Positions 11,938-58,177 of a stretch of DNA of 64,000 nucleotides are shown here, in pieces (position 1 is the stretch's first letter; each line of letters starts with the position of its first letter). The notes below the pieces were generated by a model. It made no database searches. It was not told where the DNA came from and worked only from the letters and a program-made list of their open reading frames with translations. This DNA is from an uncultured Chloroflexia bacterium (GTDB lineage: Bacteria > Chloroflexota > Anaerolineae > CG2-30-64-16). The translations under genes and the position numbers were made by a program. Location of the stretch: contig CAWEMM010000009.1 in assembly GCA_963810095.1 (NCBI GenBank), positions 352,001 to 416,000 of the forward strand, given 5' to 3'.

Positions 11938-12037
11938 TTGCGCACCCCTGGGCTAGTAGCGGAGCGGCAGCGGGCTTCGCCTGCGGAAGTCCTGCCCAAC
12001 AGATGTAGGTCAGTGGTGGCCAGAATTATCACGCGCC

Positions 12038-12133
12038 ATGTTAGCACGGGCCCTGCCGCTTGTCAAGCGATGGTTTACGAGGGGCCAGTTTTTCCGGCTA
12101 CCAGTTGACAAGGCGCCTTAAGTCTGCTATTAT
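12038..12133. promoter_or_regulatory. Divergent sigma70-type promoter pair with palindromic operator
   Basis: Plus strand TTGACA(12105)-N17-TATTAT with TGn; minus strand TTGACA(12066)-N17-TAACAT with TGn; TGTCAAG-N5-GTTTACG at 12061-12079. Confidence 0.7.
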
Positions 12134-12326
12134 CCCCCCGGTGACGCCTAAGGAACCTCCAGCCACTCCCGGCGGCGTCGCGACTTGGCCAGTCCACCAC
12201 CAGTCGGTCACCGTTTCGCAAAAGATCGGAGGACGCCCTACACGATTTCGCCTTCTTCGGCCCTAAGTTCGGACGAACCCGCACTGTCGACAAACAAACC
12301 TACATCTGTGAGTCACAGGAGGAAAG

Positions 12327-50469: not shown

Positions 50470-51234
50470 CTAGCCCGGCGCGGCGGCGGCCATCGCTTGC
50501 GCCGCGCTGCGTCGCCGGCACTCGGGACAGAGGCCCCAGCGGTCATCGCCCGTGCCGGTCAAACCCGCCAGGAACGCCATGGGCTCCGGCGCGTAGGGGC
50601 GTCCGCAGCCCGGACACGGCTTGAGCGGTACGACGGTGTCCCAGAGCCGCAGCCGGCGTTCTCCTGCCCCATCCTCGACTCGAACTGCGCCGGTCGGGCA
50701 GACCGCCGCGCACGCGCCGCACCCGATGCAGGCGTCTGACTGGACGTGGAACGGCGCTGCAACCTCCCGGCCCGGGCCTCGGCCCATGAACCCGATTGCG
50801 GCCGCGCCCACCAGGTCACGGCATACCCGCACACAGAGCCCGCACAGCACGCACAACTCGTCCGGCTTGCCGCTGCTTGCAAAGCGGGTCGAGTTGAGCC
50901 CTGCCTCCGCGGCCAGGTCTTGGATGAGGCTCGACGTGGGGCAGCGGGCGAGCAGGAACTCCAGCATCATCGTGCGGGCCGCCACCGCGGCCGGTGCGCG
51001 GGTGTCCACCACCAGGCCCTCGGCTGCAGGATGGGTGCAGGCGGCCGCGACCTGCCCCGGCCCCTCCTCCGCGGCACGCGTTTCGACCAGGCATAGGCGG
51101 CACGCGCCGTAGGCCGGCAGGCCCTCCCAGTGACACAAGGTCGGCAGGTGGACGCCTGCGAGACGGACAGCATGCAGGACGGTCGCGCCGGGCGGGACGG
51201 TGACGGGTTGGCCGTTTACGATCAGCGTTGGCAT
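50470..51234 (-). CDS. HoxU/NuoG-N-terminal-like Fe-S protein (2Fe-2S + 2x4Fe-4S)
   Basis: PTLCH, GACRLC..AAC, CVLCGLCVRVC and CIGCGACAAVCP; no catalytic domain follows. Confidence 0.85.
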   Translation of the reverse strand: MPTLIVNGQPVTVPPGATVLHAVRLAGVHLPTLCHWEGLPAYGACRLCLVETRAAEEGPGQVAAACTHPAAEGLVVDTRAPAAVAARTMMLEFLLARCPTSSLIQDLAAEAGLNSTRFASSGKPDELCVLCGLCVRVCRDLVGAAAIGFMGRGPGREVAAPFHVQSDACIGCGACAAVCPTGAVRVEDGAGERRLRLWDTVVPLKPCPGCGRPYAPEPMAFLAGLTGTGDDRWGLCPECRRRSAAQAMAAAAPG

Positions 51235-51246
51235 CTCCGCACCTCC

Positions 51247-52989
51247 TCAACTCACGCCCGGCCCTGCCGGAGCGCACTTGCCCGCGGGGCACCGGTGCTC
51301 TATCACGTGCGCCTCGTACTCGTCGCGGAAATAGCGCAGGGTTGAGAGAACCGGGTTCGGGGCGGTCTGGCCCAGGCCGCAAAGCGAGCCGGCCTGCACC
51401 GCCGCGCTCACCTCCTCCAGCAAGTCCAGGTCCGCGGGTCTGCCCTGTCCTTGCGTGATCCGCGTGAGGATTTCGCGGAGGTGCCGCGTGCCCTCGCGGC
51501 AAGCCGTGCACTTGCCGCACGACTCGGCCTGCGTGAACTCCAGGAAGTAGCGTGCGACATCTACCATGCATGCCGTCTCGTCGAGCACGACCATGCCGCC
51601 CGAGCCCATGATCGAGCCCGCCGCCTTCATGCCCTCGTAGGTGACCGGCCGGTCGAAGAGGCTGGCTGGCAGGCAGCCTCCCGACGGGCCCCCGGTTTGA
51701 ACCGCCTTGATGCGGCGGCCGTCTCGCCCACCGCCACCGATGTCCTCGAGCAGCGTCCGCAAGGGCATGCCCAGCGGCACCTCCACCAGGCCGGTGTTGG
51801 CCACCTGGCCGACGAGCGAGAACACGACCGTCCCCGCATTTGCGGGCGCGCCGATCGAAGCGTACCACTCGGCGCCTCGGGCGAGGATGACCGGGACGGT
51901 CGCCCATGTCTTGACGTTGTTGATGACCGTCGGGCGGCCCCACAGCCCGCTCTCCGCGGGATACGGCGGCTTCGGCCGGGGCTCGCCCAGTCCGCCTTCG
52001 ATGGAGGCCAGCAGCGCGGTCTCCTCGCCGCACACGAACGCGCCCGCGCCGCGTACGAGCTTGAGGCTGAAGCTAAAGCCCGAGCCGAGGATGTTCTCGC
52101 CGAGCAATCCGTTGGCTTCGGCTTGCTCGATGGCCCTGGCAAAACGCTCGACGGCGAGTGGGTACTCGTCGCGAATGTAGGCGAAGCCGAGCGTCGCGCC
52201 GGCTCCGTACGCGCCGATAATCATCCCTTCGATCACGCTGTGCGGGTCCGACTCCAGCACCGTGCGGTCCATGTAGGCGCCGGGGTCGCCCTCGTCGCCG
52301 TTGCAGACCAGGTACTTCACGTCGCCGGCCGCAATCCGGGCGAGGCGCCACTTGCGCCCCGTGGGAAAGCCCCCGCCGCCTCGCCCCCGCAGCCCAGACG
52401 CGACGATCTCGTCGACGACCTGGTCGGGGGCGACGTGTGCCAGGGTGCGCTCGAGCGCGGCGTACCCGCCCCGCGCGACGTATTCGGCCAGGCTGCCCGG
52501 GTCGACGTACCCGCAGTTCCGGAGCACGATCTTCTGCTGGCACTCGAAGAAGGGGATGGCCGCCAGCGACGCCAGGGCCGCGCTGCCCTCGGGCCTGGGG
52601 AAACGGTGCGGGGGGCCAACCGGCGGCGTGCGTTCCTCGTCGATCACGGCCCAGGCGCGTTCGGTGGGGAGATCACCCCGTGCGAGCGAGTCGACCACCG
52701 CTCGGGCAGTTGCCCGGGTGACCGACTTGTACAGAACGCGGCCGCAGCCGGGCATCCGCACGTCGACCAGCGGCTCGCCCTGGCAGTAGCCGATGCAGCC
52801 GGTAGTCGACAGGACGGCGTCGAGCCCGCGCTGCGCGATCCGCTGTGCCAACGCCTCGTAAACCGCCCCGGCGCCCGCGGCCCGGCCGCAGGTCGCCATC
52901 CCAACCGTGATCTTGATGCGATCGGGGTACAGGGTCGCGTCGCCCGTTGCGGCCAGTTCCGACAGGGTCGGGTGGACTGCCGCGTTCAT
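51247..52989 (-). CDS. NuoF/HoxF/HydB-like NADH-binding flavoprotein with N-terminal thioredoxin-like 2Fe-2S domain
   Basis: GCIGYCQGEP, GRGGGGFP, DEGDPGAYMD, GAFVCGEET, GGPSGG and ESCGKCTACREG. Confidence 0.9.
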   Translation of the reverse strand: MNAAVHPTLSELAATGDATLYPDRIKITVGMATCGRAAGAGAVYEALAQRIAQRGLDAVLSTTGCIGYCQGEPLVDVRMPGCGRVLYKSVTRATARAVVDSLARGDLPTERAWAVIDEERTPPVGPPHRFPRPEGSAALASLAAIPFFECQQKIVLRNCGYVDPGSLAEYVARGGYAALERTLAHVAPDQVVDEIVASGLRGRGGGGFPTGRKWRLARIAAGDVKYLVCNGDEGDPGAYMDRTVLESDPHSVIEGMIIGAYGAGATLGFAYIRDEYPLAVERFARAIEQAEANGLLGENILGSGFSFSLKLVRGAGAFVCGEETALLASIEGGLGEPRPKPPYPAESGLWGRPTVINNVKTWATVPVILARGAEWYASIGAPANAGTVVFSLVGQVANTGLVEVPLGMPLRTLLEDIGGGGRDGRRIKAVQTGGPSGGCLPASLFDRPVTYEGMKAAGSIMGSGGMVVLDETACMVDVARYFLEFTQAESCGKCTACREGTRHLREILTRITQGQGRPADLDLLEEVSAAVQAGSLCGLGQTAPNPVLSTLRYFRDEYEAHVIEHRCPAGKCAPAGPGVS

Positions 52990-53426
52990 CGCCGGTACCT
53001 GGCCAGGATCTCGTCCAGCCCGCTGGGCGTGAGCTGTCCGTACGTATCCTCGTCGACGCGGACCACCGGCGCCAGCCCGCACGAGCCCACGCAGCGCACG
53101 CGCTTGAGCGTGAATTCGTTGTCCGCCGTCGTTTGGTCGGGGCCGATGCCGAGGCCCGCCTCGAGCCGTGCCAGCAGCTCGGCCGAGCCCCGCACGTAGC
53201 ACGCCGTGCCCTCGCACACGTGGATCTTGTGCCTGCCGCAGGGGCGGAACGTGAATGCGGCATAGAACGAGGCCGCGCTCACCATTTGGCTCAGCGGCAC
53301 GCCCAACTCGGACGCCGCGGCGCGCACCGCCTCGACGGGCAAGTAACCGTGCTGCGCCGTGATCTCGTGGAGCGCGGCCAGGACGGCGCCCGGTTCAGGT
53401 ATCTGGTAGGCCTGGCTTGGGAGCAT
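52986..53426 (-). CDS. NuoE/HoxE/HydC-like 2Fe-2S subunit
   Basis: ASFY, VCEGTACYVRG and CVGSCGLAP. Confidence 0.9.
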   Translation of the reverse strand: MLPSQAYQIPEPGAVLAALHEITAQHGYLPVEAVRAAASELGVPLSQMVSAASFYAAFTFRPCGRHKIHVCEGTACYVRGSAELLARLEAGLGIGPDQTTADNEFTLKRVRCVGSCGLAPVVRVDEDTYGQLTPSGLDEILARYRR

Positions 53427-53443
53427 GGAAGGCCTCCTGGTGG

Positions 53444-55183
53444 CTATGGGTTCATCTCATACTGTCCGGCCAGCCCATACACGGAGCCGCGCCACACCCG
53501 GTCGAAACGCGCCGGGTTCGCGACCGGCTTGCGGACCATCTTCAGGCACAGTTCCATCTGCGCCGCGGTGCTGCTCGGCTTGCCGTAGAGCTGCACGGCG
53601 TACTTCGAAAAGTCGCGCACCATGAAATCGAAGATCTGGTCGACGGTGTCGCCGTCAATCGCGTAGAGCCTGGCGTTTTCGAGGACCAACTGGCCGTAGA
53701 CCACCAACGTGAACAGCTCGCCCAGCGCCAGCAGGAAGTCTGTGTCCTGTTGCTGCGCGTCGCTGGGTGTGGCCGTGGCCAGGAGCGTCTTGAGCGCCCG
53801 GATCTGCTCCTTGAAGACGGCTGTATTGGGGACGTCGTACAGGTCATAGGCCGGGCCGTAGTCGTGGAAACGGATTTTGCCCAGGCCGTGCGCCGGCCCC
53901 TGGTCGAACAGGAAGTCGTCGTTGCGGGGCTCGTTTACCGTCGGCACGGGCGGATACTCGGCCGGTGCGAAGAAGTAGTTCGCCATGAACTTGACGATCA
54001 GGGCGATGTTGACGTGCACCGTGCCCTCGAGCTTGGGCAGCGCCCGGATGTCGCGGGCCGCCATCTCGAAATACATGTCCCGCTCGAAGCCCTTGGCTGC
54101 GATGACGTCCCACAGCAGGTTGATAACCTCCTCCCCCTGGGTGGTCACCTTCATCTTGACGGTCGGGTTATAGAGCAGGTAGCGCCGGTCGAGGGGCGAC
54201 GCGACCCGCATATAGTCGGCGGCCCGCAGCGCAAACAGCTTCATCGCCAGCAGCCGGGCATACGCGTCGGTGAACATCTGGCGCACGTGGGGGAAGTCGG
54301 TGACTGACATGCCGTAGAGGCGCCGGCCCGCTGCATGGTTGATTGCTTCGTAGAGCGCGTGCGTGCAGATGCCGATCGAGGCCCACCCCAGGTTGTACTT
54401 CCCGATGTTCACCGTGTTCAGCGCGGCGTCCCAGGCCGCATCGCCCCGGGAGAGGATATCGGCCTCCGTTACCGGATAGTCGCGCAGGGCGAAGTTCGCA
54501 ACGTAGTTCTGGCTGTCGGTCACATTTGCGATCAGGTCGTAGCCCCGGTTGCGGTAGTCGGCTGCAAAGAAGACGTACTCGCCCGTTCCGGCCAGCTTGC
54601 CGAAGGTCGACACCATGGGCGCAGCGTTGCCGTTGCCGATGTAGTACTTCTCGCCGTTCGCCAGATAGGTTCCATCGGACTGCGGCGTCAGGCACATCTC
54701 GGTCGAGTAGACGTCCGCGCCGTGCGCTCGCTCAGAGAGGCCGAACGCGAAAACCTCGCCTTCCTTCAGCAGCCGGGCCGCCCTGCGCTTGGCGTCCTCG
54801 TTGCGGCTCTGCCAGATGGGGCCAAGGCCCAGGATCGACACCTGCCACGTATACCAGTAGGCCAGCCCGTAGAAGCCGAGGATTTCGTTGAACTCGCAGA
54901 TGCGCCAGGTGTCCCAGCGGGCGTGCGGCCCACCATAGCTCGCGGGCGTCAGCAGGTCCGCGAACAGCCCGGCGCGCTTCTGGAACTCGATGAAGTCGGC
55001 GTACCACACCCGCTTCTGGTCGTCGGCCTTGAGCCGGCGCTTGCCCTTATCTTCGAAAAACGCGATCGTCTCGCGCATGATCTCGGACGAGCGCTCGTCA
55101 GGGTAGGGCCGGGTATGCGCCTTGGGATTGAGCAGGAGCGCACCACCCGTTAATGGCGCACCATTGGTAAATGGCGTAGTCAT
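53444..55183 (-). CDS. Acyl-CoA dehydrogenase
   Basis: AFGLSERAHGAD, ANGEKYYIGN, TVNIGK and PKLEGTVHVN; start overlaps the cooS stop (ATGA). Confidence 0.88.
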   Translation of the reverse strand: MTTPFTNGAPLTGGALLLNPKAHTRPYPDERSSEIMRETIAFFEDKGKRRLKADDQKRVWYADFIEFQKRAGLFADLLTPASYGGPHARWDTWRICEFNEILGFYGLAYWYTWQVSILGLGPIWQSRNEDAKRRAARLLKEGEVFAFGLSERAHGADVYSTEMCLTPQSDGTYLANGEKYYIGNGNAAPMVSTFGKLAGTGEYVFFAADYRNRGYDLIANVTDSQNYVANFALRDYPVTEADILSRGDAAWDAALNTVNIGKYNLGWASIGICTHALYEAINHAAGRRLYGMSVTDFPHVRQMFTDAYARLLAMKLFALRAADYMRVASPLDRRYLLYNPTVKMKVTTQGEEVINLLWDVIAAKGFERDMYFEMAARDIRALPKLEGTVHVNIALIVKFMANYFFAPAEYPPVPTVNEPRNDDFLFDQGPAHGLGKIRFHDYGPAYDLYDVPNTAVFKEQIRALKTLLATATPSDAQQQDTDFLLALGELFTLVVYGQLVLENARLYAIDGDTVDQIFDFMVRDFSKYAVQLYGKPSSTAAQMELCLKMVRKPVANPARFDRVWRGSVYGLAGQYEMNP

Positions 55184-57078
55184 ATCCCCAGCCCCGCCCG
55201 CCGTTCCTTGAGCGCCATAACCAGCTTCTGCGCCGCGCAGATCGGGTCCGGCTCGACGATGAAGTAGCCGCCGAGCAGGTCCTTGGCAGTCTGCGTCAGC
55301 ACTTTGACTACGAGCGGGCTGCCGGTGACCGGCGGCACCACGCCGACATGGGTCGGCAGGCCCAGGGCGACGGCCCAGGTGCCGATCGAGACGGCCTTTT
55401 CCATCGCGGCCTCGGGCGCGGTGGCCACCACGGGGAGCTGGCTCACATCCACGCCGAGCTTGTTCGCGAGCGCGGTGGCGATGGCGGCGGCCCGGGTGTT
55501 GTCCACGCACGAACCCGTGTGCAAAGTCATCGGGAGGGGCGCGCCCAGGCCCGCGGCGTTGCCCAGCGCCGTCAGCACCGCCTTCAACCCGGGGCCGGCG
55601 TATTTCTCGGTGGCAGCCGGGGTCATCAAGCCGTGGCGTGCGAAGGTGCCGGCCGCGCAGCCCGTGCAGAGGATCAGCACGTTCTCGCGGACGAGTTCCT
55701 TCACGAGCGTCACGAAGGTCTTGTCCTGCGTGATCTTCACGTCGTTGCAGCCCGCGAACAGGCACACGCCCAGGATATTGCCGTTGACGATGTTGTCGAT
55801 CAGCGGCTTCAGCGGGTCGGCCGGGTCGACCAGGGACAACACCTTCACGATGGTTTCGACGGACATGCCGGCGAGCGCGTCGTTGGTGACGGGCGGGATA
55901 TTGATTTTGTTTGGATCCCGACGACCGTATGCCTCGATGGCGAGCCGCAGGATGTCTTGCGCCCGTTCGCCGGCGTGCGCCTCGTCGAACTCGACGTGCG
56001 TCGCGCCGGGGATCTTCGCAATGGACATGGTGGTGACGATCGCCGTGTGATAGCGCTTCGCGACCTCGGGCAGGCTGGGCATGATGCACTGGTAGTCGAC
56101 GACGGCCGCGTCGAGCGCGCCCGTCACGATGGCCAACTCTTGCGAGAGCGAGTTCGTCGCGCTCGGAATGCCGTGGCGCATCATCACCTCGTTGCCCGTA
56201 CAGCAGATGCCGACGATGTTGAATCCTTCGGGCGCGCCTGCCGCGACGGCCGCGTCCTTCATTCGGGCGGCTTCGGCGACGATGATTTCGCTGAGCACGG
56301 GGTTGTGGCCGTGCACGGCAACGTTGACCGCGTCCGCTTTCAGGCAGCCGAGATTAGCGCGGGCCATGACGGGCGCCGGCGTGCCGAAGAGGATGTCTGA
56401 CAGATCGGTGGCCAGGTACATGCCCGTGTAGTCGCCGACCGCGCACTTGATCGCGCCGAGCAGGATATTTACCGGGTCGGCGTCGACGCCGTTGGTTGTC
56501 CGGTGCATGACCTCGGCGACGGCCGAATCGAGGCCGGGCGGAACCAGCCCGAACTGCTCCAGCTTTGCAAAGCGCTGGGCGGTGACCGTGGTTTTGAGCC
56601 AGACTGGGGGCGTCTCGCGTTCGGAGAACTCGTCGAGCGCCAGCCGGGCTAACTCGCCGGCGAGGGCTTGATCGCTCTTGCCGTCCCTGGCAATGCCGAC
56701 TCGGGCGAGCACGGCGGCGAACTTGTCTTGGTCTTTGATGCCGTAGTCGGGCGCTTCCCCCCGGCTCCACTTGAGCAGGGTGTGCGCCAGGTGCTTGGCG
56801 TGGGCCGAGTGGGACGATGTGCCGCCGGCAATGCTCCGGGCCAGGCCGCGGGCGACGATGGTGTCGGCGTTCGCGCCGCAGATGCCGAGCTGAGGGCCGG
56901 TCGTGCCGAACGGGTCGATGCGACACGGCCCTTGCAGGCAGTGGCGGCAGCAGAGCCCTGTCTCACCGAAGCCGCACTGGGGCAACTGCGCCTCGTAGCG
57001 ATCCCAGGCCAAGTTGATTCCCGCCGATTGCGCGGACTTGAGCATGAGGATGGAATCGGGACTGATCGAGCGTTCCAT
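55180..57078 (-). CDS. cooS: Anaerobic Ni-Fe carbon monoxide dehydrogenase catalytic subunit
   Basis: CGFGETGLCCRHCLQGPC, GICG, HSAH, HGHNP, ICCTGNE, DYQCIMP, AGCN, TGC, GSCVDN and EKAVSIG all present. Confidence 0.96.
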   Translation of the reverse strand: MERSISPDSILMLKSAQSAGINLAWDRYEAQLPQCGFGETGLCCRHCLQGPCRIDPFGTTGPQLGICGANADTIVARGLARSIAGGTSSHSAHAKHLAHTLLKWSRGEAPDYGIKDQDKFAAVLARVGIARDGKSDQALAGELARLALDEFSERETPPVWLKTTVTAQRFAKLEQFGLVPPGLDSAVAEVMHRTTNGVDADPVNILLGAIKCAVGDYTGMYLATDLSDILFGTPAPVMARANLGCLKADAVNVAVHGHNPVLSEIIVAEAARMKDAAVAAGAPEGFNIVGICCTGNEVMMRHGIPSATNSLSQELAIVTGALDAAVVDYQCIMPSLPEVAKRYHTAIVTTMSIAKIPGATHVEFDEAHAGERAQDILRLAIEAYGRRDPNKINIPPVTNDALAGMSVETIVKVLSLVDPADPLKPLIDNIVNGNILGVCLFAGCNDVKITQDKTFVTLVKELVRENVLILCTGCAAGTFARHGLMTPAATEKYAGPGLKAVLTALGNAAGLGAPLPMTLHTGSCVDNTRAAAIATALANKLGVDVSQLPVVATAPEAAMEKAVSIGTWAVALGLPTHVGVVPPVTGSPLVVKVLTQTAKDLLGGYFIVEPDPICAAQKLVMALKERRAGLGI

Positions 57079-57092
57079 TCGTTTGCCTCCGG

Positions 57093-57671
57093 TCAGCTAT
57101 TCTCTTGGGCGCTGAGAAGCACATCCTCGCGCACCTGCCGCGCCGACGCCAGCACCTCACCGGCGCGCTCGCGCGACGCCCGTGCAAAGTCGTCGCCTTC
57201 CTGGAAGAGGAGAGCGCCCGTGGGGCACGCCGACACGCAGGCCGGCACGGGGCGATCGGGACACAGGTCGCACTTGACGGCCATGACCCGGGAGCCGGCC
57301 GGCGCATTGGCATCGGTGACCGCGGCCCGGCCGATCATGCCGAACGGGCAGGTCATCACGCACATGCCGCACGCGATACACGCGTGCTTGCCGCCGGCAT
57401 TGGTGACTTCGTCGCGCGGGCCGCGATGCATCACTTGCGGAATGCACGCGGCGATGCACGGCGCGGGATCACAGTGGCGGCAGGTCATGGGTAGCTTGGT
57501 GACTTCGAAGGGGGCAGCGGCGACGGCGTGGACGTAAATGCGGGTGTGCGGCGGGGGCGACTCAATCATGGCCCCCAGGAGGTTTTGGCTGCTGGAGTGC
57601 GCGACAGCGCAAGCCAGCTCGCAGGTTTTGCAGCCTGTGCAAAGCTCAGGACGGACGAAGAGTTTCTTCAT
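57093..57671 (-). CDS. cooF: CooF-like 4Fe-4S ferredoxin subunit
   Basis: CTGCKTCELAC, CRHCDPAPCIAAC, CIACGMCVMTCP and KCDLC...CVSACP; directly upstream of cooS. Confidence 0.9.
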   Translation of the reverse strand: MKKLFVRPELCTGCKTCELACAVAHSSSQNLLGAMIESPPPHTRIYVHAVAAAPFEVTKLPMTCRHCDPAPCIAACIPQVMHRGPRDEVTNAGGKHACIACGMCVMTCPFGMIGRAAVTDANAPAGSRVMAVKCDLCPDRPVPACVSACPTGALLFQEGDDFARASRERAGEVLASARQVREDVLLSAQENS

Positions 57672-57789
57672 TGACAACCCTCCTGTGAACGCGGTGCGGG
57701 CTTCGTTGGCGAAGCGCGCACGATAGAGGCGGAGGACGCCGGTCGGAGGAATGGTTCACAGCACAGTCAGTGTGCGATTGTCTGGCAGG

Positions 57790-57818
57790 AGTATACTGCA
57801 GGTTTTTAGAGCGGGCAA
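57790..57818 (-). promoter_or_regulatory. Candidate promoter of the coo operon
   Basis: Minus-strand TTGCCC-N17-TATACT. Confidence 0.5.
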
Positions 57819-57870
57819 AGGCGCGTTGATAGGCAGAGGTGATGACGGTGCGGGCCGCGCCCGTCACGCA

Positions 57871-58177
57871 TCAAGCATAGCCGGTCACCTCGTAATGCAG
57901 GACCCCCGGCTCGAACTCCAGCAGGTAGCCGGCATCCTCGGGATAGTACTTCGCGGCGGAAGGATCGTCACCCGCAAAGGCCCGGATCGACGCCAGGTTC
58001 TCCCAGAATGTGAGCGTGACGAAGTGCGTGACGTCTCCCTCCTCCCGCTCCAGAATGTAGGCGTTCATGTTCCCGGGGATGGACCGGTAGTCGGGGAGCG
58101 CCCACTGGATGAGGAATTGGCGGTACTCGGCCGCCTTCGCCTTCGCGAACGCGCCCATGCCACATGCGCATGATCAT
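57871..58177 (-). CDS. Antibiotic-biosynthesis-monooxygenase-like small protein (frameshift near 5' end)
   Basis: MIMRMWHG start in one frame; HFVTLTFWENLASIRAFAG..AKYYPED in the other. Confidence 0.7.

Follow-up and report, generated by a model that had tools for sequence, protein, structure and literature searches.

A probable CO:NAD(P)+ oxidoreductase operon of uncultured Chloroflexota with an acyl-CoA dehydrogenase gene as its likely passenger

A string of six genes around cooS, the gene of a Ni,Fe CO dehydrogenase (CODH), was investigated in the genome of an uncultured Chloroflexia bacterium (GCA_963810095.1). The window, that is the whole stretch of DNA analysed, comprises 64,000 nt of contig CAWEMM010000009.1 (positions 352,001 to 416,000). 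In the order of reading, the string consists of cooF, cooS, the gene of an acyl-CoA dehydrogenase (ACAD) and nuoE-, nuoF- and hoxU-like genes. We estimate at roughly two in three (about 0.68) the probability that the five genes other than the ACAD gene encode a soluble, non-bifurcating CO:NAD(P)+ oxidoreductase, and that the ACAD is an inserted passenger of the VLCAD type outside the CO enzyme. The five genes recur together in relatives, the flavoprotein subunits are nearest to those of the Bfu family, the B subunit ends before the ferredoxin-like domain of that family, and the ACAD gene is found at the operon in a patchy manner.

Results

Conservation of the five genes

The best 80 CooS loci from a collection of genome contigs were compared with the window. 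At 17 of these 80 closest loci, cooF-cooS is followed by nuoE, and CooS is at least 79% identical in all 17. Nearly all of them belong to Anaerolineae or Chloroflexota. At 14 of the 17 the string continues with nuoF and hoxU, and at the remaining three the contig breaks off earlier. The distance from cooS to nuoE is 4-292 nt at 16 loci. The exception is L086:6760-9114, with four unrelated small genes (2.35 kb) at the cooS/nuoE junction. Three of their products are YdeI/OmdA-like, a DUF3788 protein and cytidylate-kinase-like; the remaining one has no Pfam match.

Two further loci complete the set. The eighteenth (L087:9896-13900) has lost the flavoprotein genes. Downstream of cooS it carries the genes of a beta-helix protein and of an IS66 transposase, and part of the cooS 3' end is present a second time at 11974-12185. 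At the nineteenth (L098) the contig ends inside cooS. In a comparison of flanks, 19 operon loci had just the five genes in common. Every other flanking family occurs at four loci at most, the most frequent being an antisense open reading frame (ORF), and no recurring regulator, cooC or other flanking gene was found across the 19.

Absence of the ACAD gene from other junctions

The original prediction had put forward a survey of cooS neighbourhoods for the ACAD gene, whose absence from all homologous operons was to mark it as a chance insertion. Such an absence is nearly what was found. The gene is present in 0 of the 18 other visible orthologous cooS-to-nuoE junctions, which comprise the 17 loci and one more junction from G006, a genome of the same genus. 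G002 (= L081), one of the 17, is also of this genus. There cooS ends with TAG and nuoE starts 3 nt later; the ATG of the ACAD occupies that spot in the window.

The sole exception among the relatives examined is G026, an Anaerolineae metagenome-assembled genome (MAG), which probably shares the insertion. Its 1.9-kb contig L007 carries an ACAD gene with a product 87% identical to that of the window, followed by nuoE. The arrangement is split over two contigs, with about 414 nt unseen between them. In the CooS tree, the window, G026, and G002 with G035 branch in this order and form a well-supported clade of four (99/97). Of its members, the window has the ACAD gene at the operon, G026 probably does, and G002 and G035 do not. 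The spacer between the ACAD gene and nuoE is 17 nt in the window and about 75 nt in G026, and the two spacers do not align. A single insertion with later loss or exchange and two independent insertions are both possible. In the genomes of two other relatives, ACAD and operon are located on different contigs (L034 with L082, L009 with L085).

A side observation from the same tree concerns L096, a MAG labelled Zixiibacteriota. Its CooS nests in the Chloroflexota clade beside that of the Promineifilaceae MAG L095 (100/99), which suggests mis-binning or recent transfer.

Kinship of the flavoprotein module

The best PDB matches of the NuoF-like protein were the BfuB subunits of NfnABC, NiFe-HydABCSL, FeFe-HydABC and WorABCSL, with 544-651 bits; the non-bifurcating FdsB and Nqo1 gave 417 bits at most. 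For the NuoE-like protein, the C subunits of bifurcating hydrogenases were found (7t2r_C and 8a6t_C, 132 bits). Domains expected of Bfu subunits were detected in all three proteins: PF01512 (FMN), PF10531 (SLBB) and PF10589 (NuoF-type 4Fe-4S) in the NuoF-like protein, the thioredoxin-like [2Fe-2S] domain PF01257 in the NuoE-like protein, and PF13510 with Fer4_7 in the HoxU-like protein. The NuoF-like protein carries in addition an N-terminal thioredoxin-like 2Fe-2S domain.

The HoxU-like protein resembles the A subunit of WorABC(SL)3 of Acetomicrobium mobile (PDB 9MQX), a tungsten aldehyde oxidoreductase that bifurcates electrons. Residues 4-246 align with residues 7-240 of 9mqx_A (165 bits), and both CPxC pairs are included. 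Predicted from its motifs are one [2Fe-2S] and two [4Fe-4S] sites, a zinc finger of four C-terminal cysteines and a terminal helix. The cysteines are invariant in 13 orthologues. Between the 2Fe-2S and 4Fe-4S motifs one cysteine is left, so that the third N-terminal cluster site is lost. WorA itself has no A3 cluster, and it recruits WorS through its terminal helix and a zinc finger formed by the four C-terminal cysteines (PMC12318220). With no A3 cluster, the four-cysteine motif and the helix, the HoxU-like protein would thus be a BfuA of the WorA type.

Two known diaphorase modules consist of the same three protein families and have the same general role in electron exchange with NAD(P)(H). 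Both were tried as assignments and rejected. For the HoxEFU diaphorase, HoxE reached 130.8 bits (cut-off 224) and HoxU 112.5 (cut-off 333), and no hydrogenase is encoded in the flanks examined. For the N-module of complex I (NuoEFG), NuoF reached 482 (cut-off 559) and NuoE 138.6 (cut-off 141), with no adjoining nuo genes. The cut-offs are the equivalog cut-offs of NCBIfam. In sequence, the module of the window is nearer to the Bfu subunits.

Missing ferredoxin-like domain of the B subunit

In the NuoF-like protein (580 aa) the last Pfam domain, the NuoF-type 4Fe-4S domain, stops at residue 561, which leaves 19 residues. No Pfam match to a Fer4 domain, which would hold the B3 and B4 clusters, was obtained for this protein. 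The same endpoint was found in all 13 intact orthologues (567-590 aa), none of which has a ferredoxin-like domain. The Fer4 domain was detected in the positive controls, namely the Firmicute-type homologues of L147 (647 aa) and L242 (619 aa). The NuoF-like gene of one relative (L085:10383-11603) gives a product of just 407 aa, a length that points to a frameshift or a truncation in that MAG.

A ferredoxin-type 4Fe-4S domain of BfuB (IPR017896; Schut et al. 2022, PMC9304861) is the defining feature of the Bfu family, and it is this domain that the window protein lacks. The ferredoxin site of NfnABC lies between this ferredoxin-like domain, which carries B3/B4, and the C-terminal domain of the C subunit (PMC12018979). 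Since the B subunit has no such domain, the five-gene enzyme is probably a CO:NAD(P)+ oxidoreductase that does not bifurcate electrons to ferredoxin. With potentials of about -520 mV for CO2/CO and about -320 mV for NAD+/NADH (PMC9304861), the transfer of electrons from CO to NAD+ is downhill.

CooS and CooF

CooS scored 706 bits against TIGR01702 (equivalog cut-off 478) and thus belongs to this family. Its alignment with CODH-II of Carboxydothermus hydrogenoformans gave 822 bits, and all columns of the Cys/His motifs are identical. We take these columns to be the ligands of the B-, C- and D-clusters. The window also shares with CODH-II of C. hydrogenoformans that cooF adjoins cooS. In contrast to this and other CooS-CooF pairs, the window operon encodes a flavoprotein NAD(H) module. 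The next-nearest loci, about 50 with CooS 57-72% identical, have cooS-cooF without this module.

All 16 cysteines of CooF are invariant in 15 orthologues. The best PDB matches were HycB4 of 7qv7 (73 bits) and 9mqx_E (63 bits); HycB proteins are subunits of HDCR. Judged by these matches, CooF is a homologue of WorS and HycB and would be the electron wire from CooS. A homologue of WorS has also been seen in the CooF of the hypothetical, never purified "CodhABCSF" (PMC12318220).

A complex of CooF and the HoxU-like protein was predicted with an ipSAE of 0.74; the best control gave 0.00. Among 80 solved complexes 58 attain this mark, and among 110 mismatched pairs 2 do; since a similar complex is already solved, the pass may only mirror that likeness. 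At least 90% of the contacts are shared between runs, the pLDDT of the partner is at least 86, and the interface is formed by residues 215-252 of the HoxU-like protein. Altogether, the conserved unit is, as far as can be read from the proteins encoded, cooF-cooS with a module derived from BfuABC.

The following path of electrons is proposed. CO would be oxidised at the C-cluster of CooS, and the electrons would pass through the CooS clusters to the four-cluster CooF. CooF would dock on the WorA-type A subunit, whose zinc finger and terminal helix would serve as the adaptor. From there the [4Fe-4S] and [2Fe-2S] clusters of the A subunit would lead to the B subunit, which would reduce NAD(P)+ by way of its [4Fe-4S] cluster and FMN. 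The ACAD, a fatty-acyl-CoA dehydrogenase of the VLCAD type, would have entered the junction of cooS and nuoE in this lineage and would probably be co-transcribed and translationally coupled; most likely it would still be served by an electron transfer flavoprotein (ETF) encoded elsewhere.

Gene order and flanks

The six genes and a promoter-like site are listed in Table 1. The earlier observation of six genes on one strand with gaps below 20 nt was confirmed: from cooF to the hoxU-like gene the gaps are 14, -4, 17, -4 and 12 nt. Confirmed as well are the ATGA at the cooS/ACAD junction, where the ATG of the ACAD overlaps the TGA of cooS, and the claim that CooS retains all cluster ligand motifs, as the CODH-II alignment shows.

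Table 1 Features of the CODH operon (window positions)
Feature	Position	Strand	Description
cooF	57093-57671	minus	192 aa; polyferredoxin, four Cys4 motifs; Pfam Fer4 families
cooS	55180-57078	minus	632 aa; Ni,Fe CO dehydrogenase catalytic subunit; TIGR01702
ACAD gene	53444-55183	minus	579 aa; VLCAD-type, "565-aa" family
NuoE/BfuC-like [2Fe-2S] subunit gene	52986-53426	minus	146 aa; PF01257, 151 bits
NuoF/BfuB-like FMN/NAD(H) subunit gene	51247-52989	minus	580 aa; Complex1_51K, SLBB, NADH_4Fe-4S
HoxU-like gene, probable WorA-type (type 2) BfuA	50470-51234	minus	254 aa; Fer2_4 (PF13510) + Fer4_7
Promoter-like site	57790-57818	minus	about 120 nt upstream of cooF; weak consensus match only

In the region, 4 promoter-like sites were observed and 0.8 expected. 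Terminator-like sites showed no excess over shuffled sequences (5 vs 4.3), and none lies between the minus-strand genes. Two more features were seen in window 57740-58160: a short inverted repeat between the promoter-like site and cooF and, just upstream of this site, an ORF of 95 aa without Pfam match (57871-58158, minus strand). A gene for a CO-sensing regulator does not adjoin cooF.

The flanks (18 ORFs, 38960-63465) carry unrelated genes, among them those of a DegV-family protein, a glyoxalase-like protein, DinB, an MFS transporter and LeuRS. No acetyl-CoA synthase (ACS), hydrogenase, ETF or nuo gene was found among these 18 ORFs. The earlier statement that the window has no ACS, hydrogenase, ETF or cooC gene thus holds for the 18 flanking ORFs; cooC was not among them, though no search aimed at it was made.

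Family and integration of the ACAD

The family to which the ACAD belongs has proteins of about 565 aa that are 68-88% identical across phyla. Its hosts are Chloroflexota, Desulfobacterota, Myxococcota, Bacillota, Calditrichota, Acidobacteriota, Actinomycetota and some archaeal MAGs. In the Pfam search the ACAD gave a weak match: the C-terminal domain PF00441 was found with 63.5 bits (cut-off 22.4); the middle domain stayed below its cut-off (25.2 vs 33.3). An AlphaFold2 model from a 28-row alignment had a pLDDT of 91.4; an earlier model from 17 near-identical rows (62.5) was discarded. The best full-length fold matches of this model were 3owa, 2z1q, human VLCAD and ACAD9, with TM-scores on the query of 0.65-0.74. 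The identity to solved structures is 15-18%.

The catalytic Glu would be E386, which is nearly invariant and lies in an L-E-G motif aligned with the Y-E-G of 5jsc. Fold and catalytic Glu place the protein, as modelled, in the ACAD superfamily, and FAD binding is predicted. With the long ACADs of the VLCAD type (3OWA, 2Z1Q, VLCAD, ACAD9) it shares the ACAD core, an extra C-terminal helical domain and the conserved Glu-Gly. It differs from them in that its family is unusually conserved and that its place inside a CODH operon is limited to this lineage. The ESM Atlas gives a cluster of its relatives the automatic and unverified name "FadE4". A functional study of the 565-aa family was not found in the open-access literature.

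Besides four ordinary ACADs, the genome encodes just one member of this family. Two ETF-alpha genes are located on contig C6, one of them beside an ordinary ACAD. An ETF-linked system of the Bcd/EtfAB or CarCDE type does not agree with the window, as no etf gene was found in the operon or the flanks examined.

Compared with its family, the window ACAD has about 14 extra N-terminal residues, which are disordered in the model. The closest homologues (P0001-P0006, 84-88% identical, and P0113) have no such extension. In the window, nuoE has gained an AGGAGG site of its own, and the GC content at third codon positions (GC3) of the ACAD gene, 0.88, is the same as that of its neighbours. The ACAD gene thus appears cleanly built into the transcription unit, yet as a recent and patchy addition.

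Neighbourhoods of the ACAD family

The best 80 genome loci and 80 metagenome loci of the ACAD were examined for the five operon proteins by tblastn (E <= 1e-10). None of the five operon genes is present at 79 of the 80 genome loci, L007 of G026 being the exception, and at 78 of the 80 metagenome loci. The ACAD gene was present in 22 of 400 genomes sampled across the class, and none of these 22 loci (+-1.5 kb) contained an operon gene. The 867 neighbouring ORFs within 4 kb of the 160 loci were clustered, and no family was found at more than 8 loci. The commonest neighbours encode a polysaccharide deacetylase, a PlsC-like acyltransferase, MatE, an acyl-CoA synthetase and an SDR protein. BipA, another long ACAD, a thiolase-like protein and a YegS-type lipid kinase are further common neighbours. 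The neighbourhoods therefore have a lipid and fatty-acid flavour and no fixed partner. The family combines strong conservation across phyla with a lack of conserved neighbours.

Two metagenome contigs require separate mention. On L242 (754-6047) the ACAD gene is followed after about 550 nt by a cooF-like gene, nuoE, the gene of a BfuB with Fer4 domain, and BfuA. On L198 (2-4187), genes of an FeFe hydrogenase (HydB/HydA) are followed after 270 nt by a family member. In all, 3 of the 160 loci, one of which is the orthologue, have an ACAD gene adjacent to a NuoF-type gene; with 5 NuoF-type genes per 6.13 Mb, about 1.3 such loci would roughly be expected by chance.

Other CODH and hydrogenase loci of the genome

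A second cooS, 42% identical, is part of a CODH/ACS cluster at G000:C6:907000-926900 (L281). This cluster includes AcsB, two CdhD-family genes and genes for a CBS protein, an NAD-binding protein, a DHODB-type Fe-S protein and a Pyr_redox_2 protein (NfnAB-like). In the stretch examined no cooC was seen, and no search was aimed at it. Three NiFe-hydrogenase loci are present elsewhere in the genome. Two NuoF-type domains were found in long frames of 1131 and 1093 aa (G000:C10:55416-55922 and C10:72258-72758). Both are close to matches of NiFe-hydrogenase large subunits on the same contig and may belong to fused or NAD-linked hydrogenase modules.

Discussion

The gene context of the operon was described in the original prediction as not known. 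For one part of it this has to be corrected. Ni-CODH genes beside NuoEFG-like COGs were reported by Inoue et al. 2019 (PMC6344411) and in a marine survey of 2026 (PMC13240472). Furthermore, an enzyme named Codh-Bfu was proposed from 4 sequences and described as present "only in Firmicutes" (Schut et al. 2022, PMC9304861). Codh-Bfu, or CodhABCSF, is a bioinformatic prediction and was never purified (PMC9304861; Feng et al. 2025, PMC12318220). The term "acyl-CoA" does not occur in the main texts of PMC6344411, PMC9304861 and PMC13240472, and the literature search gave no title on a CooS/CooF gene cluster with an acyl-CoA dehydrogenase. A description of the truncated form of Chloroflexota was likewise not found in open-access texts.

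By its gene products, the enzyme of the window appears to be a variant of the predicted Codh-Bfu/CodhABCSF. Both join CooS and CooF to subunits of the BfuA, BfuB and BfuC type, with CooF as the WorS-like wire and with a WorA-type A subunit that carries the zinc finger and the terminal helix. They differ in the order of the genes, which is cooF-cooS-C-B-A in the window; in Codh-Bfu the CODH genes lie between B and A. Further differences are the BfuB homologue without the family-defining B3/B4 domain, the host, which belongs to the Chloroflexota, and the inserted ACAD gene. The likeness to WorABC(SL)3 extends over the A subunit from end to end including the zinc-finger cysteines; homologues of B, C and S match as well, and CooF is predicted to dock on the same C-terminal region. 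The catalytic module is different, being the tungstopterin protein WorL there and CooS in the window, and the B subunit of the window is truncated.

The proposal that CO oxidation yields NADH was already part of the original prediction. It is supported by the conservation of the five genes, the alignment with WorA, the likeness of CooF to WorS and the predicted interface of CooF and the HoxU-like protein, and it is refined here to NAD(P)H formed through a Bfu-derived module. The proposed coupling to enoyl-CoA reduction or acyl-CoA oxidation did not hold up in the same way. The ACAD gene is missing from all 18 other junctions, it stands alone elsewhere, and ETF genes are located elsewhere in the genome. 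The coupling is thus most likely an over-reading of a lineage-specific insertion, and the ACAD most likely a co-transcribed passenger.

A truly bifurcating Codh-Bfu has to be discussed against the non-bifurcating enzyme. It would transfer electrons from CO to both NAD+ and ferredoxin, with another site in place of the missing B3/B4 domain. The sequence scores point in this direction, and this weighs against our reading: the B, C and A subunits are all nearest to truly bifurcating enzymes, namely the NuoF-like protein to BfuB (544-651 bits, compared with at most 417 for FdsB and Nqo1), the NuoE-like protein to BfuC and the HoxU-like protein to WorA. Moreover, the bifurcation site proposed in PMC12018979 needs just FMN, B1 and C1. 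The domains for all three are present, so that some bifurcation might still occur with this core. On the other hand, the domain that defines the family (PMC9304861) is absent from the window and from 13 of 13 intact orthologues, the low-potential path and the ferredoxin site observed in NfnABC use B3 and B4 (PMC12018979), and no conserved extra gene of a small ferredoxin lies beside the operon at the 19 loci. We therefore consider bifurcation to ferredoxin unlikely and retain the non-bifurcating CO:NAD(P)+ oxidoreductase.

The position of the ACAD gene allows other explanations than that of a passenger. The ACAD might work in a complex with the CO enzyme, with electrons of CO or NADH reducing enoyl-CoA, or with acyl-CoA oxidation feeding the module, in either case without ETF. 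Several findings weigh against a mere passenger here. The gene is tightly integrated, as seen from the ATG overlap, the N-terminal extension, the AGGAGG site of nuoE and the matching GC3. From the overlap, the AGGAGG site and the GC3 it would follow that the ACAD is expressed with the CO enzyme, and it could have gained a link to it. No terminator lies within the translationally coupled arrangement, the gene is the only copy of the 565-aa family in the genome, the arrangement is probably repeated in G026, and on the unrelated contigs L198 and L242 a family member lies 270-550 nt from Bfu-type modules. Opposed to this, the 18 junctions without the ACAD gene include those of two genomes of the same genus, and the closest CooS clade is split, with two members having the gene and two lacking it. 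Furthermore, the 160 loci share no conserved neighbour, the adjacency to NuoF-type genes is near the rough chance value, ETF genes are available in the genome, and the ACAD-nuoE spacers of window and G026 differ and do not align. A working complex is thus very unlikely. Highly improbable, too, is the more specific idea that the ACAD was recruited as a new high-potential branch onto a Bfu-derived module lacking its ferredoxin arm. CO or NADH would then reduce enoyl-CoA without ETF, or NADH oxidation would be split between the reduction of enoyl-CoA and of CO2; the placement on L198 and L242 would in that case be a faint sign of a recurring partnership of ACAD and Bfu. A small probability for real coupling is kept because the ACAD gene is tightly integrated and single-copy and because of the adjacency on these two contigs. 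That the position is an artefact of assembly or binning is hardly credible. The genome is indeed metagenome-assembled, with 88.5% completeness and 4.8% contamination, but the junctions are clean and in frame, the codon composition matches across them, and G026 independently has the ACAD gene followed by nuoE. In addition, a 221-nt short-read contig of a public sediment run, which may be the source sample, bridges cooS and the ACAD gene (54998-55218) with 0 differences; for the ACAD/nuoE junction no bridging piece was among the public-run matches listed. Thus, the insertion of a passenger into the operon of the CO enzyme is preferred.

For the interpretation of operons, the ACAD insertion is a caution: dense packing of genes and an overlap of start and stop codons do not prove functional coupling. 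Many sediment and soil Anaerolineae share the five-gene form. No CO dehydrogenase wired directly to NAD(P)+ has ever been isolated; the existence of one is a prediction from genome data. Without the ferredoxin-binding domain, the five-gene enzyme would be the simplest natural enzyme leading from CO to NAD(P)H. It would be a natural test of the role of B3/B4 in Bfu enzymes and a possible catalyst for CO-driven cofactor regeneration. For the abundant uncultured Chloroflexota, such an enzyme would allow the use of trace CO.

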